A DNA stretch of 63,779 bases, the filler included, from Psammoneis japonica (taxonomy: Eukaryota), in assembly GCA_008632985.1 (NCBI GenBank). It is 4 parts of 4 records of this genome, joined end to end, with 100 filler letters (N's around TTAATTAATTAA, not from the genome) between each part and the next. Parts side by side here need not be neighbours in the genome. Positions count along the whole stretch, not along the records: positions 1 to 17,438 come from QPGO01000477.1; positions 17,539 to 34,757 come from QPGO01000485.1; positions 34,858 to 51,914 come from QPGO01000479.1; positions 52,015 to 63,779 come from QPGO01000514.1. One strand, written 5' to 3'. The notes beneath the pieces are model-generated. The model made no database searches. It was given only the letters and a program-made list of their open reading frames with translations, and was not told the DNA's origin. Shown here one piece after another: positions 1-63,779 of the stretch. The position numbers and the translations under genes were made by a program. Position 1 is the first letter of the stretch. Every line of letters starts with the position of its first letter.

Positions 1-108
1 TCAATGCAGAGGAATGATGACCTGACAAGGCCACAACCTGACAGAATGCCAATGGCAAGAGCAACAAGCTGAAGAGATCTCTACAAACTGGCCAGACAAA
101 CTGGCCAG

Positions 109-202
109 TGACAGCAGATGACACATGCACTGGTGAGAAAGAGAGAGAGAAGCAGATGTCAGAAGATCTGCTCATCTGTCTAAAGTGTCTGTTAGCTGTT
201 AC
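109..202. repeat. LTR-like fragment related to the LTR at 4569-4699
   Basis: Shares the core 'tgagaaag..gagaagcagat.tcaga..gatctgctc.tctgtctaaa' with ~4591-4640; begins TG and could end CA at 202. Boundaries uncertain. Confidence 0.35.
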
Positions 203-1738
203 ATGCATGAAGACAGTGACAATTGTGACAAATGTCATGAAGAGCATGTTGCAGGATGATGGGGCAACATTGTGCAGCCCCCTCCTTTTTTTGCCAAACG
301 TCCATTTTTTCTGGTGGCAAAACCAGTTTTTGTGCCTGGACATGAACACATGCATTGTTCAGCAATCAATGCAAATGCATTGTGCATTCACTGCAATGTG
401 TGAAAAATGTGTGTGCTCTGTGTGCAAGAAATTGTTGAATGTAAAAACCCACATGATGACACACATCTTCAGATGCACACATTTGAGATTTCAAATTTTT
501 CACCACTTGTCGAAATGTGACAACAATGGCGACCGCAAACACAATGTGCTCCATCAACAACAACAAACTCACCATGACACTGGCATGCATCAATGACATG
601 CATCGATGGATCATGATTTGTTTCACATGTGCATGCCTTGCTGTGCTTTGAAATTGATTGATCACATTGAAAACAGCTGAAACATTAAATTTTTTTCCCA
701 TCGCTTTTCGACCTCACAAGTCAACAATGAGCTGGTTGCACTCTCATGTGTAAATTCCATGACACATGAGTTCATGAGATGTGACACACTGTTGATTGCT
801 GTGGCTTTTGAAGGTGGTGCCATTGAGCATTGAGAAAATGGCAACCGCAGAGTCACCATGGTGAGGTGGTTTCTCACGGTTTCTGGCTGTGGCACACCAC
901 CGGTGAATTTGCACTGAATCTGAGTCATGCTTGTCAAGTTAGCATGGCTGCCAGTTTGCACATCATGTGCCCACCATTCTCAGTGGCAGGGCCGGCAGCA
1001 AAAAAAAAACAGTGATTTAGCAGAAAAAGAAGTGACTGAGATTTTCTAGTTTGCCCCAGACAGATGTGCCATGGATGATTTAAAAAGGCTGTTGTGGGCC
1101 AGTTGCTTCCCCCCAGTGTTGACCCATTTGGGGCATGTGGTCCTCTTGTGAATCTCCACACCACTCACATCCCCAAGGGCAGAGCAAGTCAATGTGGGTT
1201 GGGTGAGGCACCGATGGTGTTGTTGGTGATGCCAGGAAGCCAGCATTGTTCTTTCACCAAGACATCACCAAGGCAAGTCCCAAGAGCAAGTGGACATGTC
1301 AAAGAGTGGATTTCTTTAAATTGACTCCTGAGATGATCAACCATTAGATCCAGGACTGGATTGTTGGTCCTTGCAGCAAAACCATGAGAGAGAGAGACTT
1401 GTGGTGCTTGTGTGGAGCATTTGGTGGAGTGTGTCCATGATGCCTCACACTTGTTCAACAACATGGTTGATTGCACCAATTTGGGAAAGCACACACATCC
1501 ATTGATTTGCAAGTCAAAGGATGTCAGTGCCCATGCAACTGATGTGCCTGGTGACGTTGTGGTTGGCATGCCACAGGATTCAGTGGAGCCTGGATGTGAT
1601 GTGTCATAATGGAGCATTGGCGCAAGTGGCAGGAGTGTGTTGGAACATCCAAATCACAAGGGAAACACAAGAAAGCCACACGCATTGAAGAGAAGATGCT
1701 GTGGCTCCTCACATGGCAGATTCAGTGGCTCTTCACAA

Positions 1739-1948
1739 TTGAGATTTCATCATCACCAATCTCTCTCACCTTTCAGTTCATCTCACTATTTTGAGCAAGT
1801 AAAATCAAGAGCATTTGTGACAATTGCAGACAATTGTCACCAACNGCTCTTGATTTTCTACAATTGTCACCAATGCTCTTGATTTTACTTGCTCAAAATA
1901 GTGAGATGAACTGAAAGGTGAGAGAGATTGGTGATGATGAAATCTCAA
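1739..1948. repeat. Long inverted repeat, ~92-bp arms (1739-1830 / 1857-1948)
   Basis: Arms are reverse complements with about 2 mismatches; the spacer contains a single N and a short local duplication. Confidence 0.8.
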
Positions 1949-2334
1949 GATAAGCAGTCATGGAGAAATGCTCACTTGTCAGTCACTTGTTGCCTTTTGG
2001 TGGTTGTGACAGACCTTTAGAAGCATCTTGTTGATTTTTGTGTTGCTGTCTTGCTGAGACTGTGAGTGGCTGAACCTTGTCTGTCAGCTGGATTTACTCG
2101 CTTTGTCAGAGCTGAGTCAAAACTCACATTCAGTGAGTCACAACATGACAAAAAATGATTTTGATGGTCGTGTCATTGTGGCATGGTTATGGTGACAATT
2201 GTTGACTGACCAAAGGGTGTGCACTGCAATGTTTGTTGTTGCCTGGCATCAGCACATGCTCAAGCAGTGGAAAGACAAGGCCAGTCTCTGTGCTTCAAAT
2301 GGCTTGTGTGTCATTGTCAACACAATGTGATGCA

Positions 2335-4400
2335 ATGAGAAACTCTGCTTCTCTGCTGGTGCAGACATCACAATGGTGGCTGCTCCTCTGGATCCAATCA
2401 AGGCAGCACTGGATTGGATTGGATTCACTGACCCAGCTCACTGAGTCTCACTCCTGACAGACTTTGCATCATTGGAGGACTTTGAAGACCTCAAGGAGAG
2501 CAACATTGACTCACTTGCATCTTGTTGTGGGAGGATGACTGCCATTGAAGGGTGCACTCATTTTGGAGCAGCGTGCAGCCATTGTCTCAAATCTCTTGCT
2601 CACTGGGTCCAGGATTTCTGCCGTGTGAGTGAAAAAAGTTCTCACTGTTGGGGGCTTGGACCAAGTGTCTTTCCATTCTCAGTTGCAAATGATGCTCAGT
2701 TTTGCTGAAATTTGTCATTAGCAAAAGGACACCACAGAGTCTCTCAGCAAAGATGCTTCTCCTGGAGTGCTGGAGAATGAGAAAAGATGGATCAAATGGA
2801 GCATGGGTCTTGCAAACATGCTTGGCATTGTGCTCAGAGCATCTAGCATGCTGTTGGTGCACTGCACTTGCATCACAAGAACCCTCAACCTGATGGTCAC
2901 AACACCTTTGTTCAGAAGTGCATTGCCTGTGCACCACTTCATGGTCCAGCTTTTTGAAGCAGATGCTCCCACCATTCATTCATTGATCAAATCCCTTGCT
3001 TTGGCAATGCCAAGTGCTGATCAATGGTCAAAAGATCACAAGAGCAAGCAGAAGGGGCATGCAGACTGTCAAGCTCTCAGTGATCACTGTCAAGGGGGAG
3101 GCAACTCTTCCCATTGCATTTCTGAGACTGAGCGCTTGGAGATTGTGCTCCATCACAAGAGCAAGCATGTCATGCCATTTGAATCATTCATTGACAAGCT
3201 CCAAGAAATGTTCAACATTGTTGAGAAGAATGAGGAACCAAAGACAGAGGCTCAAATGTTGTTGAGACCTTGAAGGCACAGAACAAGTTTGGAAGGGGCA
3301 TCTTGTTCACCACTGGGGCCAATTGTCTTGCCGCAAAGGTTGCCACCCTTCCAGAGATGCTTGCACATTGATTTGCAATTGCGTCAGTCACCTCTGGAGG
3401 AGGGAGAGAGGGCAGTGCCACACACACCAGAATTGGGACCAGTTGAGCAAGGAGTGCTGCAAGCAGAAAGTTGTCATCAAGCACGTGCATCAAGGCACCA
3501 ACAAGAAGCCCAGAAACCCCAAGCATCATGCTGCATCTGTTAAATTGCTTGAGAAGAAGAATCAGAAGCTGTCATCGCAGCTCAAGGAAGGAAGCCACAA
3601 AATCTCTGCTCTCAATGCTGGGACTGACTCTGACTCTGGAGAGGGTGACTCAGGAGTCGAGGGCAAAAACAAGGACAATGCTGGGGACACATTCAGAGGA
3701 CATGGCAAATGGTGCACCAAAGAGGGGTCAATGACTCCTGAGCTAGACCCTGCTCTGTGGTCTCACCAAATTTGTTTTGTGGCTGCTGCACTTCAAGATT
3801 GCCAGAAGATTTGTGAGATCACCACCTCCACAAGATGCATCATGGCGGTGCCATCTGATCCACAAAACATCCACGTGCATGACATGAAGCAGGTGAAGCA
3901 TGGGCATCTTGAACTGGATTCGCATGCTGACACTGCTGTTTATGGTCAAAACTTTGCTCTCCCAGGTCATGCTTGATGGGAATGTGATGTGCCTCCTTGT
4001 GACCAGGGGTGCGAGTCCATCAAGAGCATCCCAATTGCATCAGTGGCCACTCTTGGACATCTCCCAGTCACGGGAGCAATGCATGTGCTTGTTTTTCATG
4101 AGGGCTTGTGGATGGCAGATTTTGTGGAGCACTCACTGTTGAACCCCACTCAGCCAGTTGCAGCATTTTGGCATTGTGGTTCAGGACAACCCCTGTTCCA
4201 AGTCACCATTGCACATCCTCACAGAGGGCAAGAGGAGTCAATGCTGCCCCTTCAAGTGATGGGGACTGGTGTCATTGCCGCCACTTGGACTCCTGCAGAG
4301 ATCAGGATCTCCACCAGTGCCCAAACATCCAGATGACCTCCCACCATCCTTGGGATCCACAAACTGTTGAGTTCAAGCAGTCAAGAACTGGATGATTCAT
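2335..4400 (+). pseudogene. Heavily decayed Ty1/copia (CoDi-like) gag-protease fragment
   Basis: Protease motif GHLELDSHADTAV at ~3900-3940; 'LVFHEGLWM..EHSLLNP' follows; gag-like 'FESFIDKLQEMF'. Many frameshifts and almost no Tyr. Confidence 0.7.
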
Positions 4401-4568
4401 GGAGGAAACAAAGTTGATCTGGCCCATCAAAAGCATTCAAACCAACACATGATGCACAAGCCCAGCAAAGATCCTGCTTGCTGCAATGCTCAGTCCAGGG
4501 GTTGTTGACAGAATGCCGAAGGTCGACAGTGACAGAGGCATGAAAGACTCCCTAAAGTGCCAGGACTG

Positions 4569-4699
4569 TGACAACACGAGTGCCAGTAGATGAGAAAGTG
4601 AGAAGCAGATCTCAGAGAGATCTGCTCGTCTGTCTAAATGGTCTAGCCATCATCCGCATCCAGTCTGTCCATCCTACAATAGGTGTGGATGGGCTGACA
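4569..4699 (-). repeat. Putative 3' LTR of the host copia element
   Basis: Minus strand reads TGTCAG...TTGTCA (TG..CA), directly preceded by the polypurine tract AGGGGAGGG (plus 4700-4708). The partner LTR is not visible. Confidence 0.55.
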
Positions 4700-5443
4700 C
4701 CCTCCCCTGATCTGCAACATCTCAACATAGAGAACAGTGCAGATCAAACCAAAGAATGGGGATGATGTGAGGAAAAAACAGAGAGACCAGACATGGGACA
4801 TGATGAGTGTCCATGCCCAATGCGCCATCAAACAAGGGGGCAATGCGCAGCAGGGAGGCCACCGTGGAAAAAAATATCAACAGCAGTGTCCCATCATGCG
4901 TCGAGCATGGCGGGCATGTGATGCCCAGCCAAGAGCCTTGGCAAGGTCATCGCTGGGGTTGACAATGCCAGGGACATGTCTTGTGACAATCTTGCCCGCT
5001 TCCTTCCATTCTTGAATCGCAAAAAACTGGATCTCAGTGTGACGGGAGCGCTCGGTCGGAATCGAGTGATTGATGATCTTGATCGCCGATTCGTTGTCAA
5101 CACATGACGGGGTTGGCTCCGTCTGAGGGAAGCCTGGGTTGTGTAAAACGTGATGAAGGTGCAGGACATGCTTGGCAGTGGTTCCAGCAGCACAAAATTT
5201 AGCTTCCGTAGAGCTCAGCGGTCACCGATTGGGTCTTGCACCGAAAAGATACAGCAGCACCAGCTAACATGCAAGCATGGCCAGTCGTAGAACGACGGTT
5301 GCGGAGGTCATTGCCACAAGCAGCATCCAAGAAAGCAACGAGTTGATGATCACATGCAGGACAAGGGAACGATGGTAAGGTCGGGTCCGGAGTGAGACGT
5401 TCGAAGGGGCAGGCAGGTAGTTTTGAGTCTCGGGCAGGCTTTT

Positions 5444-5719
5444 TGACAGGATTTGAACAGGATTTGGATGCACGCGAAGTATCGCGCGCTGTTTAGTTTA
5501 CCGCGCACAGTTTTGTGTGCTTTAGTTCCGCGCGTTCGCGCGCGATGTAGTTTGCTTTCGAGCCACAAGGCTCACAAGAATAATGACAGTAGCCCGATTA
5601 TACCGACTTACACGTCTTTCGGCTCCTGCAACGGTCTCTGAGCGGAGACTCATCTGCTATTTAGACAGCAGTAAGGAGTTATTGTTTGAATTCTTGCCAT
5701 TTGCCTTCATTTTCTGTCA
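5444..5719 (+). repeat. 5' LTR
   Basis: Direct repeat of 12272-12547 with 7 substitutions and no indels. Confidence 0.97.
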
Positions 5720-5734
5720 GATTAACAGTCTTGC
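5720..5734 (+). promoter_or_regulatory. Putative primer-binding site complementary to a tRNA-Asn(GUU) anticodon arm
   Basis: GATTAACAGTC immediately follows the LTR. Its reverse complement GACTGTTAATC is an anticodon loop CTGTTAA with flanking stem bases. There is no TGG start. Confidence 0.55.
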
Positions 5735-6659
5735 TCATTGTCAACCCATTGAGCAACCGCCATCGTCGTCGTTGATTTACCAACGACGCTATTTCAATTC
5801 TACGTGGACCTCCGTATATATTCTACATACATCGGCAAGTCTACGCGCATTCAATACCAGGGCATCGGCAGGAAGTTAACGTCACCGTCAAGTCTCCTTA
5901 CCGCTGGATATCTGGATTGATTATACTACCTTTGATCGCTGAAGACATACATTCAACGGTCATATCCAAGTCTATCCTTGATCCTCATCCCTTGATATAC
6001 CTATTCATCGGTTAACGGTCAAGAACCCTACATATTCAAGGATCTTCGTTGCTGAAGACATATATATATATACATATCTTCACGGCCAAGAACCTGTACC
6101 CACTCTTCGGACTACGGTTTTGCTACCACTCTACAAGCACACCGAGTCCATTGTACCTGATCTACCCCGGACTACTGGTGCTCTACAGTTCTACTAGGTC
6201 CACGAGGATGACTGTGAGAGCAAGCAGCCGTGATTACAACCTACGTTGGGGCGAGGGTGCTTTCCCGCGTTTGTTCGTTCGTCCACAGCGCCTAACGCCT
6301 ACGTCAACTGGCCAGCCTGATCGGGAAATCCAACCGATATAAAATAAGAACGGTTCGGGGGTCTTGTCCACCTCTAGTCAGCTTACCTGCAGGGGTTTAC
6401 AACCCGCTACTCCGCTCGTAAGCAACCCAAAGCGCCACTGGCTGCGGGTTCGGACGTGCCGGCACAACTCTACGGACCGGATAGGAAGTTTAGCACTTAA
6501 CAACGAACGGGATAACAAAGCCCGGCGACTTCTGATTTTAAGATAGTTCAAGATTTCAAGTCAAGTCCATTTCAAGTCAAGCCTGTTCTCACCCAAGTTT
6601 CGAGTCTACCTTCGCTTCCCAACCCCGAATTGATTGTCCTGACACCACTTTTGTCTACC

Positions 6660-9600
6660 ATGGTTCTCACTCGTCAGCAACAAACCGATGGTTTCGAGCA
6701 CGTTGTTGGAACCGTGCTTGCCCAAGGTGCTGGGAGTCCTCTTCGTTTAGCTTTGGCCCAAGACGGCACGGACTCGCATCAGGAACTATTCACGTTCATA
6801 CCGTCCCAAATCGACTCGCTTGAGTACGACAACGGCACTAATGTAATCCCTTTGCCCCGTGGTTATAAGAACATGTTAGCAGCACTAGTTAGCCTGTACA
6901 TTGTCAAAGCACACAAGGGGTCTTGACGTTGCCAACGACTCCTCTTTGTTCACGCATGACGAGTTCCTTGCCTGCCGCCTCAGCCCGGACTGCATGTCCT
7001 CTGTGTCCATCGGCAGCTCACCCCTTGCACCTCCACATGTCACCAACCCGACCAAGGCACACGACCCGGTGCGAGACTTCAAGCGAGGCATCAAGCGTGA
7101 TCCCACCGCTTTCACAGCTCTCAAATCCGACAAGCAGTGGCACACTTGGCACACCTCACTTGTGGCACAAGCCCGTGCCCAAGACGTCGAGTGCATTCTA
7201 GACTCGTCGTACAAACCGACCAGCCCCGAAGACAAACTGCTCTTTGCTGAACAGCAAAAGCACATGTTCGCCGTCTTCGAATGCATCCTTCTCACCGACA
7301 AGGGCAAGGCTCTCATTCGCGAAAATGTGGGGTCTTCTGACGCACAGACCGTCTACCGCTCCTTGTCTGAGTGCGCGCTTGCCTCCACCCGTGCATCTGT
7401 CGAGTCCTCCACCCTGCTCACGTACCTCACCACCGCATGTCTTGGTGATGGCACTTGGAAAGGCCCGACCCACGGGTTCATCCTTCATTGGCAAGATCAG
7501 TTGCGCAAGTACGAGGCGCTCATCCCTGCCAGTGACCACTTCTCTGAAGGACAGAAGCGCGTCATGCTCGAGAATGCCGTGCACCCTGTCGAGGAACTCC
7601 GTGCTGTCAAGAACCAAGCTGATCAGCACCGCACGCAGAGTGGCAAGAGCCTCACATACGATCAATGCTGTGGCTTGCTCCTCTCCGCGGCAGCTCAGTA
7701 CGACAGCACGTTTCAACCCAAGACGACACCTAGAGCTCCCCGACGCGCCATGTGCGCACACGACGTCTACTCCGAGGAACCATCCGACGATGTGTTCTAC
7801 GACATTGACAGCGACGTTGACGTCCTTCAAGCCAATGCTGCCTACACCCGCGGTCCCAGCCTCACCGGTGTCCAATGGAGACGTCTCCCTCCCGACCACC
7901 AACGGCTCTGGGATTCGTTGCCCGATTCCTCCAAGGCGATCATCCTTGAGCATTCTCGTCCGCCTCCCCGCAACCCGCGAGCCAGCAACTACCATGAGTC
8001 TGTTACGGCCAACCTTCACGACCAACACCTTGGGAGTGACGGTGATGTCAACTTGTCCAACACGACTCCTGCTGACTGTGGTGACCCGCCACATGTGGAC
8101 GCCACTTCGGATAATCCCATCCTGGCGCACCTCACCAAGCGCAAGCCACTGCCACCCGGTGATCTGCAACGTCTGTTGTCTCCTAACCAAGCCCCCAATG
8201 CCAGTCGACCGGGGCCATCCGCCGCTTCCTCTACCCCGCCAGCTTCTGCAGATAACACAGAACTTGACGGCTGCACTTGCCGCCGCGTTAACAACCACAA
8301 TGTCATTTACTCTGCCTCTGCTCATCGCTCCACACGCACTGGCGCTCTAGTCGATCGTGGGGCCAACGGCGGCATTGCTGGCGACGACGTTCGCGTCATC
8401 GCACGCACCTCTCGCCAAGTCGACGTTCAGGGCATTGACGATCATCAATTGGTGGACATCCCCATTGTCACCGCTGGTGCCGTCATTGAGACCCAGCGTG
8501 GTCCCGTCATCGCCATCCTCCATCAGTGCGCACACACGGGAAAGGGCAAGACCATCCATTCCTGCGGCCAGCTCGAATGGTACAAACAGGATGTCAACGA
8601 TCGCTCTGTCAAGGTGCCCAACGGCTTGCAACGTATTGCCACTCCTGATGGCTATGTCATCCCCATTGACATCAAGGCTGGCCTGCCTTGTGTTGCCATG
8701 CGACCTTACACTGACGCCGAATGGGACACCCTGCCCCATGTCATCCTCACCGGTGATGACACATGGGACCCTTCCGTCCTCGATCACTCTGTCACTGACG
8801 ACGACCAGTGGTACGACGTGATCTCTGACCTGCAGGACGATCCCACTGCCAACCTATTTGACGAATACGGCAACTGCCGTCACCGTGTCGTTGTCAACGA
8901 GACCATCTTGTCCGCTTCCTTGTCTGCCGATCACGCGTCCGCCCTCGATGATCACCTCATTCCGAACGACGACGTGTTCTACGAGTGTCATCTGCATGCG
9001 ATTGACCCCCAGGGCGATGACGTTCCACCTCCGGAGCGCACTGTACAGCCCAAGGACCCCCCCTTTGAGTCTCTTCGGCCTCACTTTGGCTTCCTACCTG
9101 CCGATGCGGTCCGTCGTACTTTTGACTGCACCACGCAGTGCGCCCGCATGCCCGCCGGTACACACCTTCGCAAGGCCTACAAATCACCCAACCCCGCCCT
9201 TAATGTGCACCGCCGCAACGAGCCTATCGCCACTGACACCGTTTATGCCGACACCCCGGCCGTCGACTCTGGTTGCACCAGCGCCCAACTGTTTGTTGGC
9301 ACCGCGTCTACCGTCACTGACGTCTACGGCACTAAGACGGACAAAGAGTTTGTCAACACACTCGAGGATCAGATCCGTGAACGTGGTGCCCCATCCAAAC
9401 TCATTAGCGACCGTGCTCAAGTTGAGATCAGCAACAAAGTGCTTGGGATCCTACGCGCCCTCTTCATCTCCAGCTGGCAAAGTGAGCCTCACCAGCAACA
9501 CCAAAACTTTGCCGAGCGTCGACACCAGACCGTGAAGCGCATGGCGAACACTGTCATGGACCGTTTTGGTTCGCCCGCCCACACATGGCTGCTGGCGCTC

Positions 9601-12324
9601 ATGTACGTGTGCTTCATACTCAACCACACAGCGTCCCCACGTCTCCACTGGCGCACGCCCCTCGAGACTCTCACTGGATCCACCCCGGACATCAGCCCAT
9701 TGCTTCGCTTTCACTGGTGGGAACCAGTGTACTTCCACCTCGATGACTCCGATTGGCCGTCCGAATCCCGTGAGTTGCGTGGACGCTTCGTTGGCATTGC
9801 TGAGCACGTCGGCCACCAGATGACCTTCAAGATCCTATCTGACGAGACTCAGAAGATCCTCTACCGGTCCAACGTTCGCTCCGCTACCCCCGATCCTGCC
9901 GTTCGAAACCTGCGTCTTGATCCTCCTGATGGGGAGCCACCTGAACCCATCATCAAATCTCGCCATGACGACAACCCCGTCGATTCTCCTGATGGGGAGA
10001 TCAGGACACCCAAGATGCCAGTTTTCGATCCGCAAGACATCATTGGACGACCTTCCTCATGCAGCCACAAGAGGACGGACAACGCCACAGAGCTCGCATC
10101 GTCAAGGCCGTCGAAGACCACGAATGGAAAGTGAACGGCAATCCCGAGCTCACTAAGTTCGTCTGCTCTGTCAACAATGACGAATACGAGGAAGTCCTTG
10201 CCTACAATGACATCATGAATCACATTGAGCAAGAAGACGAAGACACTGCTGTTTGGAAATTTCGACGCATTGTGTCACACGAAGGACCTCTGAAGCCTCA
10301 CGACCCAACCTGGAAAGGCTCAAGCTACAACATCATGCTTGAATGGGAGAGTGGGGAGATCACGTCCGAGCCTCTTGCCATCATCGCCAAGGACGACCCC
10401 GTCACCTGTGCCATCTATGCACGAGAGAACGGACTCCTCGACACGGATGGCTGGAAGCGGTTCCGCACTATCGCGAGGCGCCAAAAGAAGCTATTTCGCA
10501 TGGCCAACCAAGCCAAGCTTCGCTCCTTCCGCACTGCACCTCGCTGCAAGTACGGATACGAAGTTCCCCGGAACTACAAACACGCCATGTCACTAGACGA
10601 ACGCAACGGCAACCGCAAGTGGGGAGACGCAACTAATCTCGAGATGGACCAACTCGACGAATACGAAGTCTTCCATGACTGCGGGCCCTTCAAGTCTTCC
10701 ACTCCTCCTGCGGGACACAAGAAGATCCGAGTGCACCTGGTGTCGACGTGAAACACGACGGTCGCCACAAGGCACGACTCGTAGCCGACGGGCACCTCAC
10801 GGACGTACCATCGACAGTGTCCACTCCGGAGTAGTCTCCCTCCGTGGCCTTCGGCTGATGATTTTCCTGGCCGAACTCAACGAGCTGGAGACATGGGCCA
10901 CCGACATTGGCAATGCCTGCCTTGAAGCCACCACCAAGGAGAAGCTTTACATTGTAGCTGGACCCGAATTTGGCAAACTCGAAGGACACATCCTTGTCAT
11001 CCACAAGGCACTGTATGGACTGCGCAGCTCCGGTCTCCGCTGGCACGAGCGCTTCGCCGACTGCCTGCGAGCTGAAGGCTTCTTCCCCTGCCGCGCCGAA
11101 CCCGACATTTGGATGCGCAGGAACGGCGACCACTGTGAACACATTGCCGTTTATGTGGATGACCTCGCCATTGCCATGAAGGACCCTCAATCTTTCATCG
11201 ACACTCTCACGGAAAAGCACAAGTTCAAGCTCAAGGGCACAGGACCCATTGAGTTCCATCTGGGTTGCGACTTTTCCCGGGACCCCGACGGAACCTTGTG
11301 CCTGTCTCCGCGCAAGTACATCGAGCGCATGGTCGACAGCTACGCCCGACTGTTTGGGGAGAAACCTGCCACCAACGCCCTGTCACCTCTAGAGAAGGGT
11401 GACCACCCCGAACTGGACACTTCCGAACTGCTGGGACCCGATGGCATTCACAAGTTCCAGTCTCTTGTTGGTTCACTCCAATGGGCAGTGTCCCTTGGTC
11501 GAATTGACATTGCCACGGCTGTCATGTCACTCTCTAGCTTCCGAGCTGCGCCCCGTCAAGGCCACTTGGATCGTGCCAAACGCATCTGTGGGCACCTCTC
11601 CAAGATGCGACATGGTGCTCTCCGCGTTCGCACGGAAGAGCCCGACCATTCGGATCTCCCTGCTCCGGCCTATGAATGGATGCATTCCGTGTATGGTGAA
11701 GCAGAAGAGATGATCCCGAAGGACGCTCCACCGCCCCTTGGCAAGTTCGTCACTACCACCCACTGCGTCGATGCAAACTTGTGCCATTGCATGCTCACCG
11801 GACGCTCTGTCATGGGAATGCTCCACTTCCTCAACAAATTCCCGGCTGATTGGTTCTCCAAGAAACAAGCCACCGTGGAGACTGCAACCTGCGGATCTGA
11901 ATTTGTTGCCGCAAGGAATTGTGTTGAGCAGATTATCGACCTGCGCATCACCCTGCGCTACCTTGGCGTCCCGATCCGTAATGTCAGTTACATGTTCGGT
12001 GACAACAAGTCGGTTGTAGACAGTGCCACCATCCCGCACTCCAAGTTACACAAGCGACACACCGCACTGTCGTTCCACCGTGTGCGTGAGGCAATTGCCT
12101 CTGGTTACCTTGAGTTCCACTTCATCGAAGGCTCCCGCAACCCTGCTGACATTCTCAGCAAGCATTGGGGTTACTCCCAAATCTGGGGCCTTCTCCGCCC
12201 CCTCATGTTCTGGAACTTCATTCCATCCGAAGTCGAATCTGTTTCTGTGGCTCCTCAAGCAAACTGGGGAGTGACAGGATTTGAACAGGATTTGGATGCG
12301 CGCGAAGTGTCGCGCGCTGTTTAG
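6660..12324 (+). pseudogene. gag-pol polyprotein (frameshifted, with many Tyr to Cys/His changes)
   Basis: ATG at 6660; protease LVDRGANGG; integrase (ATDTVY, ISDRAQ, QNFAER); RT YVDD; RNase H (VDAN, SEF, GDNKSV, NPADILSK). Frameshifts near 6900, 10050, 10742 and 10808. The stop lies inside the 3' LTR. Confidence 0.92.
12261..12271 (+). promoter_or_regulatory. Polypurine tract
   Basis: AAACTGGGGAG directly abuts the 3' LTR. Confidence 0.7.
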
Positions 12325-39064: not shown

Positions 39065-40837
<1,773 letters not shown>

Positions 40838-52830: not shown

Positions 52831-52834
52831 GCTC

Positions 52835-53700: not shown

Positions 53701-53919
53701 CAAAAAGAAAAAAAGAGAAAATCTGCTGGCAGCGCTGCCAGCGAAACATGTTGCTCACAATGCCTCTGGCACATGGAGCACATTTCCATGATGCTGTGTT
53801 GCTGAGATTAGCACCGTGTTGTGCTTGCAGCCTGCTCTTGGTTTGCTTGGAGAGGGAAGGCAGATGCAATGTTCCCAACGAATGTGCTGGGGATGGCTTT
53901 GCTCTTGGAATTTGGTTGG

Positions 53920-54350
53920 ACAACCAATGGCCACAAAACACAAGCTCGACAAGCTCAACATTGAAAAAGAAGAAAAACTTGAGGAGGCTGGTGTTGAGCG
54001 GGACTTGTGGGAAAATCAATGGGGCACAATGCCCTCTCTTCTCAAGCAATTCACAAAATGGGAGAGACATTGCAACATGCCAAGGGGCCACAACGAGGAT
54101 GGGGAGAACCTTGGAAAATGGTCAAGCAACCAACAGGGTGCCACAAGGAAAAGGAAATTTGACACTTCTCTGCAGGAATGACTGAAGAAGGCCAGAGCCA
54201 AGTGGGGCATTCGGGCTGAGCATTGGGAGACTGTGTTTTCTCTTCTCAAACAGTTTGTGGTGCACAAGGGAAGCTGCAAAGTGCCCCAATGTCACAATGA
54301 AAATAGAGAGAGACTTGGACATTTGGCTGGACATGCAAAAGCAAGCATGG
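53920..54350 (+). pseudogene. Relic of two helicase-associated (HA) domain repeats; duplicated at ~59465-59895
   Basis: W..M.SLLKQF...HCNMP..H....LGKW..NQ and WETVFSLLKQF..HKGSCKVP match the HA-domain pattern. Confidence 0.6.
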
Positions 54351-55415
54351 AAGGCTGTAAGACTGAAGAACAGCCATGCAAACTGGCTGCTGGATGTTGG
54401 CGTGTTTTTGTCCAACAGCTGTCTCCACTGCAAGCTGCAACAGAAGAGACAAAGTGAGTGCTCCAAAAGATTGCGGCTTGCAAGGAGAAAGCAGATTCAA
54501 GTGTCAAGACCATTCAAGTGCCGGCCAATCCTCAAGACAATCCGAAGACATGCAAACATTGGATGACAGCAGATGCTCTGGAGGATGTGGCAGCAGCGCT
54601 TCAGACATGGGGTCAATGTCATTTTGGACAGGCCAAAGGTGCGCCTCCTGCTGTCCCTCCCCTGTCCATGGACTTGGGGCATGAAGGGAACACCGTCATG
54701 GCAGAGCTGATGTTGGATGGGGAACATGACACCTGTCAATTGAAACTTGCTGCCTCGTTGCTTGTCCAGCATCTCCGTCAAGGCACACCTCCAGCTGTGA
54801 GCAATTCTTTGTCTTCTGCCACTTTGTCATCCAAATTGAAGACATGGCCTGAATCAACATCTGCCTTGCTGAAATCAGGACCACATCTTGGCCCTTGGAA
54901 GGCTCTGAATGCCCCTCATTCACACTCCAAAGATCAAGTTGCTCAAGGAAATCCAACTCCAAAGAAACTGCACCTGGGGCAGGCACGGCAAACCTCATTG
55001 CAACACTGCTTCACCTTGTTGACTGTGCTTTGAAGTGGGGATGCTTGCGCGACCATTGGAGAGACATTGTCAATGTGATGATCTTCAAAGAACCAGGGAA
55101 CAACAAAGTCCATCAACTGTGGGTCTCACACATGTGCAAAGCAGACCATCAAATCATTGTGAGTGTGAAATGGCAAGAATTGGCACAGCAAATGGAGCAC
55201 CACTGGATGTGCAATCCCGGCATCAGTGGATGCCACTCATTCCTTTCTGCCCAGACTCCCGTGTTTCTTGAGAACTTGATGTCAGAAATGTCATGAGCTT
55301 CTTGAAAGACGATGCTGATGGGCAATGATGATTGCACCTCTTGCTTTGACAGAAACGTTCCTGACTTTGCTCTTGGACTGACGGCATGCACTCGCAAGTT
55401 GTTGAAGTTGACATG
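54350..55415 (+). pseudogene. Non-LTR retrotransposon RT-upstream relic; duplicated at ~59895-60960
   Basis: 'HFGQAKG.P', 'TWPESTS...SG.HLG.WKAL' and 'W..IVNVMIFKEPGN.K.HQL.V.HMCKADH' resemble diatom LINE-type RT N-terminal motifs. Confidence 0.6.
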
Positions 55416-55418
55416 AAA

Positions 55419-56899
55419 CAGCACGTTTGTTTTCCTTGAAACCGCTGGTTGCTTGTTTGTTTTCCTAAAAAACCATGTTTGTTTTCCTTGAAATGTTTGT
55501 TTTCTTTGAAACAACATGTTTGTTTTCCATTTGTTTTCCTTGAAACAACACGTTTGTTTTCCTTGAAACAACGGGTTTGTTTTCCTTGAAACAACACATT
55601 TGTTTTCCTTGAAACAACGCGTTTCTTTTCCTTGAAACAATGTGTTTGTTTTCCTTGAAACGGCTGGTCATTTTCTTTGAAACTTTTCTTGAAACAACTT
55701 GTTTGTTTTCCTTGAAACCGCTGGTCGTTTTTCTTGAAACAACACGTTGGTTTTCCTTGAAACAACACGTTGGTTTTTCTTGAAACAACACACTTGTTTT
55801 CCTTGAAACAACTTGTTTGTTTTCCTTGAAACAACATGACAGTTTTCCTCAAAACAACATGACAGTTTTTCTTTGAAACATTGCCTTGAAACAACACATT
55901 CGTTTTCCTTGAAACAACATGCTGGTTTTCCTTGAAACAACACGTTGGTTTTCCTTGAAACAACACGCTCGTTTTCCTTGAAAGAACACGCTCGTTTTCC
56001 TTGAAAGAACACATTTGCTTTCCTTGAAACAATTTGTCTGTTGTCCTTGAAACAACATGTTTGTTTTTCTTGGAACAACACATTTGTTTTCCTTGAAGTG
56101 ATGTGCATGTTTTTCTTGAAACAACACGTTTTTTCCCTTGAAATGACACGCATGTTTTCCTTGAAACAACACGTTTGTTTTCTTTGAAACAACACATTTG
56201 TTTTCTTTGAAACAACACATTTGTTTTCCCCAAAAAAACTTTTTTTGCCTTGAAATGACACGTTTGTTTTCCTTGAAACAACACGTTTGTTTTCCTTGAA
56301 ACTGCGCGTTTGTTTTCCTTGAAATGACACGTTTGTTTTCCTTGAAATGACGTGTTTGTTTTCCTTGACACGACATTTTTGTTTTCCTTGAAATGACACG
56401 TTTGTTTTTCTTGAAAAGACGTGTTTGTTTTTCTCAAAAAGACGTGCTTGTTTTTCTCAAAAAAAAATTTTGTTTTCCTTGAAACAACATGTTTGTTTTC
56501 CTTGAAACGTGTTTGTTTTCCTTGAAATGACGTGTTTGTTTTCCTTGAAAAGACATGGTTGTTTTCCTTGAAAAGACATGTTTGTTTTTCTTAAAATAAA
56601 ATGTCTGTTTCCTTGAAGCGACACGTTTGTTTTCCTTGAAATGACATGTTTGTTTTCCTTGAAACGACATGTTTGTTTTCCTTGAAACGACATGTTTGTT
56701 TTCTTTGAAAAGACATGTTTTTTTTTTCTTGAAACGACATGTTTGTTTTCCTTGAAACAACATGTTTTTTTCCTTGAAACGAACATGTTGGTTTTCCTTG
56801 AAACAACGTGTTTGTTTTCCTTGAAATGATGTGCTTGTTTTCCTTGAAAAAAACATGTTTGTTTTCCACGAAAAGACATGTTTGTTTTCCTTGAAAAGA
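55419..56899 (-). repeat. 23-bp tandem array, inverted orientation
   Basis: (GTTTGTTTTCCTTGAAACAACAC)n, the reverse complement of the 52835 array. Confidence 0.95.
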
Positions 56900-58400
56900 T
56901 GTGTGGGCAGGCGGAAGGATTGGCTGCTGCCACCACCCACAAGAACCGTGCCCATGCACAGATTGCCGTCGCGAAGTGAACCGGATGGGGTCATTTTACT
57001 TTCGACCAGTGCGCTCAATGCCATCAGAAGGCTTGCAATGACTTGTCTGAGCTTGATGAGCCGGTGGCTGAGACCAAGAAGGTCTCTGACTTTCTCAAGG
57101 GTGTCTCTGACCCTGAGTTGGAGACTGGTGAAGGTGCAGTGGATGGAGATCCAACGAAGTCAGCAGATTTCAAAGCATGCCAGCAGCATGTGAAGACTCT
57201 GGTGGAGAATGCCAAGAACCGCAATGCTGATGCTCACGGAGTCGCGTCTGTCCAACACTGCAACAACCGGCATGGAACCCCTGGCAGCAAGCACCAACCT
57301 TAAAAAGGACAAGCCCAGGATCCGGGCAGGCTGTTGCCCCATTGGAGAGTGGAGTGCTCTTGACGGTCCTGAGCAAGAGCAAGTTGAGAAGCTCCGCGAG
57401 GCCAAGAAAACCAGCGAGAAATGCAAAGCAGCAGCTGCATCCTCGGATGCTGAGCTGGTTGACACCGACACTCGCGCTGTGAAAAAGGTGGCTGTTGCTG
57501 AGCCTCAACCACCTGCCAATGAACAAAAGAACTCCAAAGAGTTAGATGAGCTGCCTGCTGCCAACGCAGGCACGCAGCTTGGACGCAGCACCCATGAGAA
57601 ACCTCAGAAGGAGGAATGGGCAGTTGTGCCAGCACCAAAAGGTGCAGATCCACCTGTCGCTGCACCTGCTGGCACTGTGCATTCATCTCCGGGTGATCCC
57701 TGGAGGACACACATGTCTCTTTGTCATGTGCTGGACATTCAGATGGTGAAGCAACCAACGACTTGGACTTGCATGCTGATGCATGTGCTGTTGGGTCCAA
57801 TTTTGTCATGTGCTCTGATGTCGACTGCACTGTTGCAGCACATCCTTGCTCCAAAGAGTGTGCGCCAATGAGGGGTGCTCCCATTTGCACAGCTGCTGCC
57901 ATGTGGGTTGATCCAACCAATGGACAGCCACACCTGCTGACAGCCCATGAGGCTGTGTTTTTTGGGGACAGAATGACTGACACCCTGCTGTGCCCCAATC
58001 AACTGCGAGCGAATGGACTGACTGTCCATGACACCCCTTGCCAGTTTGACCCCAACAGCACACACTCTGTTGTTTTCCCTGACTCAAAAATCAGGGTGCC
58101 TTTGCACATGCGAGGTGTTGTTTTGGTCTTTGACTCACATGAGCCGACTCAGAAAATCCAGAGAACCTCCCCTGGCTGGAACTCACATCACCCCCCAGAT
58201 GGGAACCTTGTGTTGATGCCATGGTGCAAAAGGAGGAAGAGTGCACATGTGCCAGTGTGTGCCAATGACAAGCGAAGTCAGATGGACAGTTGACAATGAT
58301 GAATGCAACCAGGTGTGTCGCTTCAGCTCATTTGTGTCAGACGTCCCATCACAATGAGAGGGTCATTGTGGAAGCCAATGATGACAAGCCGCTTGGTTGC
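56900..58400 (+). pseudogene. Copia gag-protease relic (the protease part duplicates 52015-52830)
   Basis: 'ELDEPVAETKKVSDFLKGVSDPEL' is gag-like; followed by DLDLHADAC. Confidence 0.7.
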
Positions 58401-58401
58401 T

Positions 58402-59245
58402 CATGTCGTTTCAAGGAAAACAAACATGTCGTTTCGAGGAAAACAAACACGTCGTTTCAAGGAAAACAAACATGTTGTTTCAAGGAAAACAAACGTGTTG
58501 TTTCAAGGAAAAAAACAAGTCTTTTCAAGGAAAACAAACATGTTGTTTCAAGGAAGGAAAACAAACAAGTTCTTTCAAGGAAAACAAACATGTCTTTTTG
58601 ATGAAAACAAACATGTCTTTTCAAGGAAAACAAGCGTGTCTTTTCAAGGAACACAAACATGTTGTTTCAAGGAAAACAAATGAGTCGTTGCAAGGAAAAC
58701 AAAAAAGTTGTTGCAAAGAAAACAAAAAAGTTGTTGCAAGGAAAACAAACATGTCATTTCAAGGAAAACAAACATGCTGTTTCAAGGAAAACAAACATGT
58801 TGTTTCAAGGAAAATGATCATGTTGTTTCAAGGAAAACAAACATGTCATTTCAAGGAAAACAAACAAACACATCTTTTTGACGAAAAAAAACATGTCTTT
58901 TCAAGGAAAACAAACACGTCTTTTCAAGGAACACAAACATGTTGTTTCAAGGAAAACAAATGAGTTGTTGCAAGAAAAACAAACAAGTTGCAAGGAAAAC
59001 AAAAAGTTGTTGCAAAGAAAACAAACATGTCTTTTCAAGTTGCAAGGAAAACAAAAAAGTTGTTGCAAGGAAAACAAACATTTCTTTTCAAGGAAAACAA
59101 ACATGTCATTTCAAGGAAAACAAACGTGTTGTTTCAAGGAAAACAAATGTGTTCTTTCAAGGAAAACAAATGTGTTCTTTCAAGGAAAACAAACGTGTTC
59201 TTTCAAGGAAAACAAACAAGTGTCGTTTCAAGGAAAACAAACACG
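58402..59245 (+). repeat. 23-bp tandem array
   Basis: Duplicate of 52835-53700. Confidence 0.95.
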
Positions 59246-60963
59246 CAAAAAGAAAAAAAGAGAAAATCTGCTGGCAGTGCTGCCAGCAAAACATGTTGCT
59301 CACAATGCCTCTGGCACAAAGAGCACATTTCCATGATGCTGTGTTGCTGAGATTGGCGCCGTGTTGTGCTTGCAGCCTGCTCTTGGTTTGCTTGGAGAGG
59401 GAAGGCAGATGCAATGTTCCCAACGAATGTGCTGGGGATGGCTTTGCTCTTGGAATTTGGCTGGACAACCAATGGCCACAAAACACAAGCTCGGCAAGCT
59501 CAACATTGAAAAAGAAGAAAAACTTGAGGAGGCTGGTGTTGAGCGGGACTTGTGGGAAAATCAATGGGGCACAATGCCCTCTCTTCTCAAGCAATTCACA
59601 AAATGGGAGAGACATTGCAACATGCCAAGGGGCCACAACGAGGATGGGGAGAACCTTGGAAAATGGTCAAGCAACCAACAGGGTGCCACAAGGAAAAGGA
59701 AATTTGACACTTCTCTGCAGGAATGACTGAAGAAGGCCAGAGCCAAGTGGGACATTTGGGCTGAGCATTGGGAGACTGTGTTTTCTCTTCTCAAACAGTT
59801 TGTGGTGCTCAAGGGAAGCTGCAAAGTGCCCCGGTGTCACAATGAAAATAGAGAGAGACTTGGACATTTGGCTGGACACGCAAAAGCAAGCATGGAAGGC
59901 TGCAAGACTGAAGAACAGCCACGCAAACTGGCTGCTGGATGTTGGCATGTTTTTGTCCAACAGCTGTCTCCACTGCAAGCTGCGACAGAAGAGACAAAGT
60001 GAGTGCTCCGAAAGATTGCGGCTTGCAAGGAGAAAGCAGATTCAAGTGTCAAGACCATTCAAGTGCCGGCCAATCCTCAAGACAATCCGAAGACATGCAA
60101 ACATTGGATGACAGCAGATGCTCCAGAGGATGTGGCAGCAGCACTTCAGACATGGAGTCAATGTCATTTTGGACAGGCCAAAGGTGCGCCTCCTGCTGTC
60201 CCTCCCCTGTCCGTGGACTTGGGGCATGAAGGGAACACCGTCATGGCAGAGCTGATGTTGGATGGGGAGCATGACACCTGTCAATTGAAACTTGCTGCCT
60301 TGTTGCTTGTCCAGCACCTCTGTCAAGGCACACCTCCAGCTGTGAGCAAATCTTTGTCTTCTGCCACTTTGTCATCTAAATTGAAGACATGGCCTGAATC
60401 AACGTCTGCCTTGCTGAAATCAGGGCCACATCTTGGCCCTTGGAAGGCTCTGAATGCCCCTCATTCACACTCCAAAGATCAAGTTGCTCAAGGAAATCCA
60501 ACTCCAAAGAAGCTGCACCTGGGACAGGCACGGCAAACCTCGTTGCAACACTGCTTCACCTTGTTGACTGTGCTTTGAAGTGGGGATGCTCGCGTGACCA
60601 CTGGAAAGACATTGTCAATGTGGTGGTCTTCAAAGAACCAGAGAACAACAAAATCCATCAACTGTGGGTCACACACATGTGCAAAGCAGACCATCAAATC
60701 ATTGCGAGTGTGAAATGGCAAGAATTGGCGCAGCAAATGGAGTGCCGCTGGATGTGCAATCCCGGCATCAGTGGATGCCACTCATTCCTTTCTGCCCAGA
60801 CTCCCGTGTTTCTTGAGAACTTGATGTCAGAAATGTCGTGAGCTTCTTGAAAGACGATGCTGATGAGCAATGATGATTGCACCTCTTGCTTTGACAGAAA
60901 CGTTCCTGACTTCGCTCTTGGACCGACGGCATGCACTCGCAAGTTGTTGAAGTTGACATGAAA

Positions 60964-62435
60964 CAGCACGTTTGTTTTCCTTGAAACCGCTGGTTGCTTG
61001 TTTGTTTTCCTAAAAAACCATGTTTGTTTTCCTTGAAATGTTTGTTTTCTTTGAAACAACATGTTTGTTTTCCGTTTGTTTTCCTTGAAACAACACGTTT
61101 GTTTTCCTTGAAACAACGGGTTTGTTTTCCTTGAAACAACACGTTTGTTTTCCTTGAAACAACGCGTTTCTTTTCCTTGAAACAATGTGTTTGTTTTCCT
61201 TGAAATGGCTGGTCATTTTCTTTGAAACTTTTCTTGAAACAACTTGTTTGTTTTCCTTGAAACCGCTGGTCGTTTTTCTTGAAACAACACATTGGTTTTC
61301 CTTGAAACAACACGTTGGTTTTTCTTGAAACAACGCGCTTGTTTTCCTTGAAACAACTTGTTTGTTTTCCTCAAAACAACATGACAGTTTTCCTTGAAAC
61401 ATTGCCTTGAAACAACACATTCATTTTCCTTGTGCAGCATGCATGCAGACAAAAGGTTGTTTTTGTCACGCCCTTTGTGACATTTGAAGGCTGCGACACG
61501 TCGCCGTGACACATTGACTCTTGTCAGCAGCTGTGCATTGCACTCCTCCCCATGTGTCACGCGTCCATGCGGCTCTTTGCTGACGTGCACTGACACTGCA
61601 CGGTTTTGGCAGAACAGTGTGGGTGCGTGTGAAGGAACATGCAGAACTGCGCAGAGTTTTGCGCGTTTGACAGTGATCAACGTTGCTGCAGACAACTCCT
61701 GCTCAGGGTTTCGAACCCCTGGCCTCCTGCCTGATGGTTGTGAGATGAACCACTCCGCTGTGAGTTCATGGTGCAGCATGCATGCAGACAAAAGGTTGTT
61801 TTTGTCATGCCCTTTGTGACATTTAAAGGCTGCAACATGTCGCCGTGATGCGTTGACTCTTGTTGGCAGCTGCACATTGCACTTGAAACAACATGTTGGT
61901 TTTCCTTGAAACAACACGCTGGTTTTCCTTGAAACAACACGCTCATTTTCCTTGAAAGAACACACTTGCTTTCCTTGAAACAACTTGTCTGTTGTCCTTG
62001 GAACAACATGTTTGTTTTTCTTGGAACAACACGTTTGTTTTCCTTGAAGTGATGTGCATGTTTTTCTTGAAACAACACGTTTTTTCCCTTGAAATGACAC
62101 GCATGTTTTCCTTGAAACAACACATTTGTTTTCTTTGAAATGACACATTTGTTTTCTTTGAAACAACACGTTTGTTTTCCCCAAAAAAACTTTTTTTGCC
62201 CCAAAATGACACGTTTGTTTTCCTTGAAACAACACGTTTGTTTTCCTCGAAACTGCACGTTTGTTTTCCTTGAAATGACACGTTTGTTTTCCTTGAAATG
62301 ACACGTTTGTTTTCCTTGACACGACACGTTTGTTTTCCTTGAAACAACACAATTGTTTTCCTTGAAACAGCTGGTCATTTTCCTTGAAACAACTTGTTTG
62401 TTCTCCTTGAAACCACTGGTTGTTGTCCTTGAAGC
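60964..62435 (-). repeat. 23-bp tandem array, inverted, interrupted by the TRIM
   Basis: Duplicate of the array starting at 55419. Confidence 0.93.
61433..61881 (-). mobile_element. 449-bp TRIM-like mini LTR element with internal tRNA-like A/B boxes
   Basis: 110-bp terminal direct repeats (61433-61542 and 61772-61881) with TG..CA ends; 4-bp TSD CTTG; minus-strand PPT GGGGAGGAG (61543-61551); empty site in the paralogous array at ~55908. Confidence 0.88.
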
Positions 62436-63034
62436 AACATCCGCGGATGTCAAAACAGTCTTCAGCACTGCAGGACCTTGGGGATTGGAGCATGTGGCAA
62501 TTCCACAGCTGATGATTTTTGGGAAGGGGAGCCGCCACATGACTGGGGCTGAATCGCATTGTTGACATCTGCGGCAGCTGCTGAAGTGGAGCTTGGCAGC
62601 TCAAGGAGTGGCGGCACTTGTTGGAAGAAGAATGCCGCTGGCACCGTGTCCGGAGGCATCTTGACAACCAGCAGTGGTTGGCTTGAGTGGGGCTGGTTCC
62701 TGCGTGCAAACAGGTTGGGTGTCGAGGGTGGACTCTGGATCTTGAAAATCGTCTGATGCCAAGCGAGCATCGGCAGATGTTTGGACCCTGGAGTCCAGCG
62801 CAGAGCATGTCGGAGATTTTCTTGGAGTGCTGAGACAAGGCCCCAGGATCCGGGCATGGCCAGGCTCAAGGAGCGCAGCTCTCCCAGAAGCTTTTGATGA
62901 TCGGCAACGGCAGACGGGCTCCAGCCCCAGGTGAGACTCTGTGTGACATTGGGCCCGCAGAATTCTGCGTGCGATCTCTGCAGCAAATTTTTCAAGTGAT
63001 GAAAGCATGAATGATTGCCAACAGAAAAAAAGGC

Positions 63035-63378
63035 AATTTGTTTGTTTTCCTTGAAACAACTTGTTTGTGCTCCTGAAAAAAAACGTGTTTGTTTTCCCTG
63101 AAACAACGTGATTGTTTTTCTTGGAACACCGCCATTGTTTTCTTTGAAACAACTTGTTTGTTTTCCTTGAAACTGCTGGTCTTTTTTCTTCAAACAACTT
63201 GTTTGTTTTCCTTGAAATGACATGTTTGTTTTCCTTGAAACAACACATTCGTTTTCCTTGAAACAACACGTTTGTTTTCCTTGAAACAACTTGTTTGTTT
63301 TCTTTGAAATGACATGTTTCTTTTCTTTGAAACAAAATGTTTGTTTTCTTTGAAACAACATGTTTGTTTTCCTTGAAA
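63035..63378 (-). repeat. 23-bp tandem array, inverted orientation
   Basis: Same unit as the other arrays. Confidence 0.92.
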
Positions 63379-63470
63379 AAATGCGTTTGTGACGCGTTCC
63401 AGGTCCAGGTGGGACCTCGTGCTGCTGAGCTGTGACATCGACAGTTTTTTGAATCACGTCGCATGTCGCG

Positions 63471-63779
63471 CACGTAGATTTCTACGTGACATTTTTGATG
63501 TTTTGTGTCATTTTACGGTGCACTCATTGAGCGATCCGTCCAACAAATTTTGACTTTTTTTGTCACAGCACAATTCCACAATGTCTTAAGAATCGCACAG
63601 GGCAGGTGCACCTGCAAAAACGTCGAGTGGTGAGAGGCACAATTGCACCACAAACTTGGCCGTTTGTTTGATGTTGAAGACAAATGTGCCCAACAATCAA
63701 ATTCTTGCACCACGGAGCTCGCACGCAGAATTCTGCGGGCCCAATGTCACACGGAGTCCCACCTGAGGCTGGAACGCAT
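63471..63779 (+). repeat. Dispersed repeat or element end homologous to 26858-27172; partial inverted copies at 62913-62978 and ~63390-63417
   Basis: Shared hairpin and GGGCCCAATGTCACAC..TCCCACCTG motif. Confidence 0.7.

Follow-up and report, generated by a model that had tools for sequence, protein, structure and literature searches.

The four contigs analysed here come from the genome of the diatom Psammoneis japonica (assembly GCA_008632985.1) and are joined into a single stretch of 63,779 nucleotides, referred to below as the window. They include long tracts of repeat-derived DNA from which the dinucleotide TpA has almost disappeared, and a gene island in which TpA is present at a normal level. 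A preliminary description of this DNA had proposed a genome-defence system that mutates the adenines of TpA in repeats, yielding TpG or CpA. The analysis presented below supports TpA-directed A:T-to-G:C hypermutation of repeat DNA; it does not support the complete novelty of the process.

The contigs occupy positions 1-17438, 17539-34757, 34858-51914 and 52015-63779, and their adjacency across the joins is artificial. They are separated by spacers (17439-17538, 34758-34857 and 51915-52014) which, read directly, have the form N44-TTAATTAATTAA-N44, a six-frame-stop linker. The first contig opens with a tract of unassigned origin (1-5000), followed by two nested copia retrotransposons. The younger, copia A (5444-12547, plus strand), is recognisable by its long terminal repeats (LTRs), target duplication and RVT_2 domain. 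It interrupts an older element on the minus strand, copia2, whose 3′ part (RNase H, with the motif RSTTGH) lies at 5001-5443 and whose 5′ part (gag, integrase and the start of the reverse transcriptase, with gag_pre-integrs, SH3_retrovirus and weak RVT_2 Pfam matches) lies at 12553-17438. The second contig, depleted in TpA from end to end, carries a copia relic, B (approximately 24.4-26.5 kb, minus strand), with 121 tblastn hits at 24.5 kb and the motifs HVDD and AIACHR. The third consists of the gene island (34858-49616), which includes a GlcNAc-transferase-like gene, a MAP kinase, an MFS transporter and others identified by Pfam, and of a truncated copia relic, C (49617-51914, minus strand), which contains no TpA and is 72.8% identical to positions 9079-10841. 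The fourth contig retains 17 TpA in 11.8 kb and includes a direct duplication, satellites and the relic of a gene with helicase-associated (HA) repeats.

The three depleted parts of the window contain 36 TpA for 346 expected at 1-5000 (observed/expected, o/e, 0.10), 59 for 1019 at 17539-34757 (0.06) and 20 for 1043 at 49617-63779 (0.02). The longest TpA-free runs reach 2535 bases. TG and CA are over-represented in all three, with o/e values of 1.56-1.84 (1.84 and 1.83, respectively, at 1-5000). CpG is also depleted, to 44 of 279 expected at 1-5000, to an o/e of 0.62 in the second contig and to 0.16-0.62 over this most TpA-depleted, and oldest, DNA as a whole. In every region the combined deficit of TpA and CpG is close to the combined excess of TG and CA (545 vs 522, 1345 vs 1157 and 1417 vs 1149). 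AA shows no deficit (o/e 1.03-1.45). In the gene island (34858-49600) there are 647 TpA for 1020 expected (0.63), with TG and CA at 1.16-1.18, and ten of its introns have 51 for 77 (0.66), which indicates that single-copy non-coding DNA is unaffected. The near absence of TpA and the saturation with TG and CA noticed in the preliminary description, as well as the normal level in the island, are thus borne out, and the sparing of single-copy genes and introns, which it had set beforehand as a test, was found. It had omitted 5.4-17.4 kb, where the two nested copia elements are depleted in part: the coding part of copia A has 82 TpA for 248 expected (0.33) with CpG at 0.94, the 5′ part of copia2 (12548-17438) has 65 for 293 (0.22) with CpG at 0.76, and the 3′ part of copia2 has TpA at 0.20-0.50 with CpG at about 1.0.

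The direction of change can be read from conserved codons. We aligned 120 copia polyprotein homologues to the window by tblastn and used those codons with at least 80% agreement among at least 15 homologues. Copy A (9.0-12.4 kb, plus strand) is identical at 378 of 408 conserved columns and has kept 13 of 21 conserved tyrosines, the others having become cysteine (four), histidine (three) or phenylalanine (one). Copy B (24.4-26.2 kb, minus strand; 140 of 282 columns) has kept none of 16, with four changed to cysteine, three to histidine and nine to other residues, and copy C (49.6-51.5 kb, minus strand; 113 of 149 columns) none of six, with four changed to cysteine and two to histidine. Summed over the three copies there are 12 cysteines and 8 histidines, so that both outcomes predicted for an A-to-G change on either strand occur. 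In copy A, 7 of 21 tyrosines have become cysteine or histidine, compared with changes at 22 of 387 other residues (Fisher p=2.6e-4), and 9 of 10 conserved lysines are retained in copy C. The altered peptides that had been quoted from the sequence are all present, DIGNACL at 10903-10923 and ETATCGSEF at 11878-11904 on the plus strand, and RSTTGH at 5277-5294, AIACHR at 24978-24995 and HVDD at 25860-25871 on the minus strand.

The alignment of copies A and C (1751 bases) gives the same direction. At 24 sites TA in A stands opposite TG or CA in C and the reverse was found at none; the 34 TAs of copy A are read in copy C as CA (14), TG (10) and never as TA. Mismatches between A and G show no direction after an A (19 vs 14) and a complete one after a T (10 vs 0). 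Changes of the CpG type are also abundant, with CG in A opposite TG or CA in C at 88 sites and the reverse at six. Sites with TG opposite CA (23 in this pair and five in the duplicates of the fourth contig) were not scored as TA events because an ancestral CG would leave the same trace. Together with the lost tyrosines, the copy pair upholds the direction from TpA to TpG or CpA that had been proposed.

Copia A also allows changes that followed insertion to be recognised. Its LTRs (5444-5719 and 12272-12547) are 276 bp each, have TG..CA ends and are bordered by an intact 5-bp target duplication, CTTTT (5439-5443 and 12548-12552). These features, and the order gag-integrase-reverse transcriptase-RNase H, are hallmarks of Ty1/copia elements. 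The nesting of copia A within copia2 allows stages of the mutation process to be ordered by relative age. The two LTRs differ at seven positions, of which five are TA in one LTR, which may be either, and TG or CA in the other, and two are CG opposite TG or CA. This corresponds to 5 changes in 32 TA site-copies, 2 in 44 CpG site-copies and 0 in about 400 other base-copies. As LTRs are identical at insertion, such differences cannot stem from pre-integration editing of RNA or cDNA, and the earlier suggestion that the process acts on chromosomal DNA is supported.

The spacer at 34758-34857 makes the left edge of the gene island artificial, so that the sole real junction between depleted and normal DNA is that at 49616/49617. 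On the left, successive TpAs are 20-40 bases apart; on the right, TpA is missing for 2.3 kb, the last one being at 49616 and the next, at 51960, within a spacer. The homology of relic C to copia A ends at the same position, which is a truncation point inside the element. Summed Logan contig depth in run X1 rises from 61 (bin 49083-49651) to 803 (bin 49652-50220), and this coincidence indicates that TpA depletion starts where repeated sequence starts. The junction itself could have been formed by a later rearrangement. A contig of X1 is identical to the window over 51177-51719, with zero differences, which lends some support to the bases. Over the island, X1 and the window differ in an ordinary way: of the 40 differences listed, 19 are A>G or T>C, and 5 of these lie at TA.

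The surviving TpAs reveal a neighbour-base effect. Among the 115 left in depleted DNA, 60 have the form YTAR (Y, pyrimidine; R, purine) and three the form RTAY, compared with 97 and 209 in the island (p=2e-22). When both strands are counted, depleted DNA contains 0.41 times as many TAA as the island, 0.25 times as many TAG, 0.085 times as many TAC and 0.065 times as many TAT. Survival is therefore 4-6 times higher for TAG and TAA than for TAC and TAT, which indicates that A is lost fastest when a pyrimidine follows. Under this rule YTAY should become YTGY, and RTAR should become RCAR. The predicted products show the corresponding bias: the ratio of YTGY plus RCAR to YCAY plus RTGR is 1.48 in depleted DNA and 1.16 in the island (p=4e-4).

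The loss of CpG to TpG and CpA, as expected from 5-methylcytosine decay, is a second, slower and separable process in the same DNA. In the coding part of copia A about one third of the tyrosine TAs have been lost and CpG is intact. The o/e values of TpA and CpG form a graded series, from 0.33/0.94 in copia A through 0.22/0.76 in copia2 to 0.02-0.10/0.16-0.62 in the oldest DNA. TpA loss is the faster of the two processes and, since it is present where CpG is intact (0.33 vs 0.94), does not require CpG decay. A later stage is recorded by the duplicated copies in the fourth contig. They differ at 97 positions, of which 45 are of the CpG type, three of the TA type and 10 fall in five TG/CA double sites, the remainder being seven transversions and 32 other transitions. 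The TAs had therefore gone before the duplication, and CpG decay continued afterwards. The changes in this DNA are thus not only A:T to G:C (88 CpG-type vs 24 TA-type sites in the A/C pair and 45 of 97 in the duplicates), and we read the abundance of CpG-type changes as the mark of a second process rather than as a refutation of TpA hypermutation.

Related elements outside the window provide a comparison. For the copia reverse transcriptase there are 2586 relatives, of which one is labelled Cylindrotheca fusiformis, and homologues are 55-72% identical. In 80 related copia loci from metagenome contigs, which served as a baseline, the median TpA o/e is 0.68 (range 0.30-0.99). Two of these show the same signature as the diatom repeats. 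L075 (2912 bases) retains 6 of 17 conserved tyrosines and has seven cysteines and two histidines in their place; L058 (2759 bases) retains 9 of 15, with three cysteines and three histidines. Both have a TpA o/e of 0.30-0.31 and are 65-68% identical in DNA to copia A. The other 78 loci retain 1161 of 1262 conserved tyrosines. One of the two search patterns used to find the loci demanded the tyrosine of TATYGSEF, and mutated copies are thus under-sampled in this set. No significant context skew was found in L075 and L058 (17 YTAR vs 28 RTAY, p=0.42).

These observations show that retrotransposon relics and other repeat or silent DNA of this diatom have been hypermutated locally, after insertion, from TpA to TpG or CpA. 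The transitions, A:T to G:C on either strand of the palindromic TpA, approach completion, are fastest at TAY and slowest at YTAR, and halt at the repeat edge. We consider it probable that the agent is a DNA adenine deaminase, which would convert adenine in DNA to hypoxanthine, read as G. It may be brought to silenced or repeated chromatin, by the chromatin state or by repeat recognition, and might derive from TadA/ADAT2, the deaminase of tRNA A34 that naturally acts on an A with C on its 3′ side. Elements would be disabled by missense changes (tyrosine to cysteine or histidine) and by the loss of signals containing TA. By the genetic code, a change of TA to TG or CA cannot create a stop codon, and removes TAA and TAG.

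Because TpA is palindromic, a process directed at its T is inseparable by sequence from one directed at its A, and the copy pair, the tyrosines and the context fit both. In a thymine-directed process, the T of TpA in silenced DNA would be modified by a TET/JBP-type enzyme to 5-hydroxymethyluracil or a base-J-like form that mispairs with G, giving T to C; the neighbour rule TAY would then be read as RTA to RCA. T modifications do favour TpA contexts in other protists, but 5-hydroxymethyluracil normally pairs with A and no such mutational outcome was found in the literature searched, and we regard this route as unlikely. We give much less credence to an ADAR-like A-to-I editing of RNA, or deamination of cDNA, fixed by reverse transcription before integration. 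It would fit the excess of TG over CA on the sense strand of both partly mutated copia elements, and the 5′ U/T preference resembles that of ADAR (PMC10661471). However, the LTRs of a single insertion differ at five TA sites and these changes are therefore post-integration, cysteine (12) and histidine (8) outcomes both occur, the preferred 3′ neighbour is a pyrimidine and not the G of the UAG favoured by ADAR2, TpA-free DNA includes satellites and the HA-repeat gene relic, and the edge falls within an element, where that element is truncated.

Two further explanations concern the nature of the sequence itself or of its repair. Error-prone repair of the Pol eta type, recruited to repeats, had been put forward in the preliminary description as a candidate, and A to G at TA indeed belongs to its hotspot motif, WA to WG (W, A or T). 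The same motif would draw in AA, which is undepleted (o/e 1.03-1.45); A/G mismatches show no direction after A (19 vs 14) and a full one after T (10 vs 0), and 9 of 10 conserved lysines are retained in copy C. This candidate has to be set aside as most improbable. Nor do we expect the pattern to be an artefact of miscalling at modified bases, or the native composition of TpA-poor TE (transposable element) lineages, either of which we judge very improbable. Such an explanation can appeal to the fact that the support for the bases comes from Logan contigs and to the two related metagenome elements with a TpA o/e of 0.30. Against it, the X1 contig matches 51177-51719 without difference, the TpA states are graded (0.90, 0.33, 0.22, 0.02), tyrosines of catalytic motifs are lost, tyrosines are retained in 78 of the 80 related loci (1161/1262), and two contigs from other projects carry the same pattern of tyrosine replacement by cysteine or histidine.

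Several observations weigh against hypermutation by a repeat-directed adenine deaminase, or limit how far it can be taken. Most of the depleted DNA has no recognisable TE protein, and its status as repeat is drawn from depth over one relic and from the duplication within the window. The window contains a single real edge between depleted and unique DNA, the others being contig spacers. The X1 data are Logan contigs, perhaps of the very sample that was assembled, and a systematic misreading of bases keeps a small probability. Within copia A, the LTRs and leader are at a normal level (103 TpA for 114 expected, 0.90) and the coding part is depleted; the coding deficit may be partly inherited from a mutated source copy, or compositional, since TpA o/e values in related elements go down to 0.30. 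On the sense strand of both partly mutated copia elements TG exceeds CA (o/e 1.45 vs 1.23 and 1.60 vs 1.29), a skew that has no explanation in the favoured model. Finally, the ratio of cysteine to histidine at tyrosine codons is 8:3 after a pyrimidine and 4:5 after a purine, which is in the predicted direction but not significant (p=0.36).

The preliminary description had held the process to be undescribed. This does not stand, since Mettrop et al. (bioRxiv 10.64898/2026.01.13.699255) measured the change of TpA to TpG or CpA in the chlorarachniophyte Bigelowiella natans, where integrated giant-virus and virophage DNA is hypermutated at TpA. According to the accessible portions of this preprint, 231 of 302 new mutations in mutation-accumulation lines fell in two integrated viral regions, and 230 of these 231 were A:T-to-G:C, all at TpA and giving TpG or CpA. 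The de novo rate was about 1000-fold over background and only some lines were active, TpA-poor coding sequences were enriched for reverse-transcriptase and DDE domains, and an ADAT2-like adenine deaminase was proposed, unproven, as the agent (bioRxiv 10.64898/2026.01.13.699255). Those portions contain no mention of diatoms, of "trinucleotide" or of "flanking". We found no report of TpA hypermutation in the literature on diatoms, and in the general literature only this preprint.

The diatom repeats resemble the B. natans case in the dinucleotide hit and in its products (24 sites to none between copies A and C, five of seven LTR differences, 12 cysteines and 8 histidines). They also resemble it, as far as the available text goes, in confinement, with the island at 0.63 and introns at 0.66 compared with 0.02-0.10 in depleted DNA, the edge at 49616/49617 and X1 differences that are not TA-specific. 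The hosts differ, being a diatom (a stramenopile) here and a chlorarachniophyte there. So do the confirmed targets, which are LTR retrotransposons and other repeats here and, in the text consulted, integrated viruses there. Depletion is far deeper in the diatom, with an o/e of 0.02-0.10 compared with a reported 0.45 in the region derived from a nucleocytoplasmic large DNA virus (NCLDV). CpG decay accompanies TpA loss here, whereas changes in the B. natans target region are described as almost exclusively A:T to G:C, and those parts of the preprint do not report the TAY/YTAR neighbour effect. The diatom case is thus a process of the same kind, far nearer saturation, in a lineage remote from the first.

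Among other known systems the closest in form is repeat-induced point mutation (RIP) of Neurospora and other ascomycetes, which introduces transitions at one dinucleotide, is confined to repeats, has sharp edges and saturates. The diatom process shares the transitions, the single dinucleotide, the repeated target, the sharp edge and the saturation. In contrast, RIP changes CpA to TpA and enriches TpA, while here TpA is erased and CpA enriched; and RIP creates stop codons, which the diatom process cannot do, removing TAA and TAG instead. 5-methylcytosine deamination also converts a palindromic pyrimidine-purine step into TpG or CpA, and operates in this DNA too (CpG o/e 0.16-0.62), but it cannot remove TpA and is here the slower, separable process. 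Adenine deaminases provide a biochemical parallel. A table in a review (PMC10661471) gives the target contexts as 5′ACG for TadA/ADAT2 and 5′UAG for ADAR2. The former is an A followed by a pyrimidine, as in the diatom repeats; A is read as G after deamination by both TadA and ADAR, and the 5′ neighbour favoured by ADAR is U/T (PMC10661471). On the same source, the 3′ G preferred by ADAR2 is the poorer context here, TAG being poor and TAC good. TadA, ADAT2 and ADAR act on RNA, and the present process on DNA.

A broader reading, which we put forward tentatively and think less likely to be right than wrong, is that diatoms and chlorarachniophytes, distant branches of SAR (stramenopiles, alveolates and Rhizaria), share a DNA adenine deaminase derived from TadA/ADAT2, guided by chromatin or repeats to T-A-pyrimidine targets, which serves in genome defence and has rewritten most of the repeat DNA of this diatom. 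On this reading, the two unrelated metagenome contigs would suggest that it is widespread in the sea. If DNA is indeed subject to a natural, targeted A:T-to-G:C mutator, this would add a new type of genome defence that mirrors RIP and APOBEC, and a possible source of natural DNA adenine deaminases. The prior basis for such a process was one preprint on one alga, and a second case shows that it is no single-species curiosity. With their thousands of target sites, the diatom repeats allow the sequence rule (here TAY) to be defined, and make it possible to search for the enzyme by comparison, among genes common to affected lineages and absent from unaffected diatoms.

Several features of the depleted DNA are worth recording in their own right. 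The tract at 1-5000 contains a near-perfect palindrome of 210 bp (1739-1948), with arms 91.5% alike, which includes five of the few surviving TpAs and could be a hairpin element. The direct duplication of the fourth contig (5.58 kb; 52015-55911 and 57595-61432) has copies that are 97.5% identical. Satellite arrays with a unit of about 23 bp occur there in both orientations, at 52833-53703, 55408-56904, 58401-59247, 60953-61432, 61882-62440 and 63033-63390. They are free of TpA, and ApT is scarce (o/e 0.4-0.5 in those kilobases). The HA-repeat gene relic (PF03457; 53792-54178, plus strand, 34.3 bits for a cut-off of 28.4) has a duplicate near 59337-59723. It belongs to a large repeat-protein family (1388 relatives) in which no column is strongly conserved as tyrosine, so that it offers no non-TE test of polarity; where it departs from the residues most common in the family, some of the replacements, V to M and R to Q, are of the CpG type. 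A weak HA match in a second frame (53394-54185) suggests a frameshift. The relic is a hint that depleted DNA may also harbour coding sequence other than that of TEs.

Protein signatures are otherwise sparse in the depleted DNA. None of 12 open reading frames (ORFs) from 1-5000 matched a Pfam family above the cut-off, and 39 ORFs of at least 150 amino acids from depleted DNA gave sub-threshold matches only. Among 146 stop-to-stop ORFs of at least 100 amino acids in this DNA, 111 were compared with Pfam, the other 35 belonging to satellite arrays or to the duplication's second copy, and the HA repeat was the sole match to pass the cut-off. Relics B and C gave no Pfam match though tblastn had found them, so that a Pfam blank is uninformative on TE class. 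Copia is the only TE class confirmed, and Pfam saw its domains only in the partly mutated elements. The spread of the pattern to CACTA-like, LINE, MITE and TRIM elements, put forward in the preliminary description, remains a proposal. As the process removes TAA and TAG and leaves TGA as the only stop, the window contains 92 ORFs of at least 150 amino acids, long and overlapping in the six frames. TpA-free DNA is for these reasons a trap for gene prediction, with false long ORFs and TE proteins that escape Pfam, and it distorts both gene and repeat annotation.

The best named relatives of the MAP kinase exon of the gene island are from Nitzschia, Fistulifera, Fragilaria and Pseudo-nitzschia, at 68-74% identity, none being near-identical, which places the host among the diatoms and not with B. 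natans. Contigs of a second Logan run, X2, labelled "DNA?", are RNA-like. They do not cover 38.8-41.1 kb and 49.1-51.9 kb, from which no inference is drawn. Between 34858 and 49000 they skip ten introns of 74-105 bp with GT..AG (or CT..AC) ends, and these skips reveal the exon structure of the GlcNAc-transferase-like gene, of a fringe-like gene and of other genes of the island.

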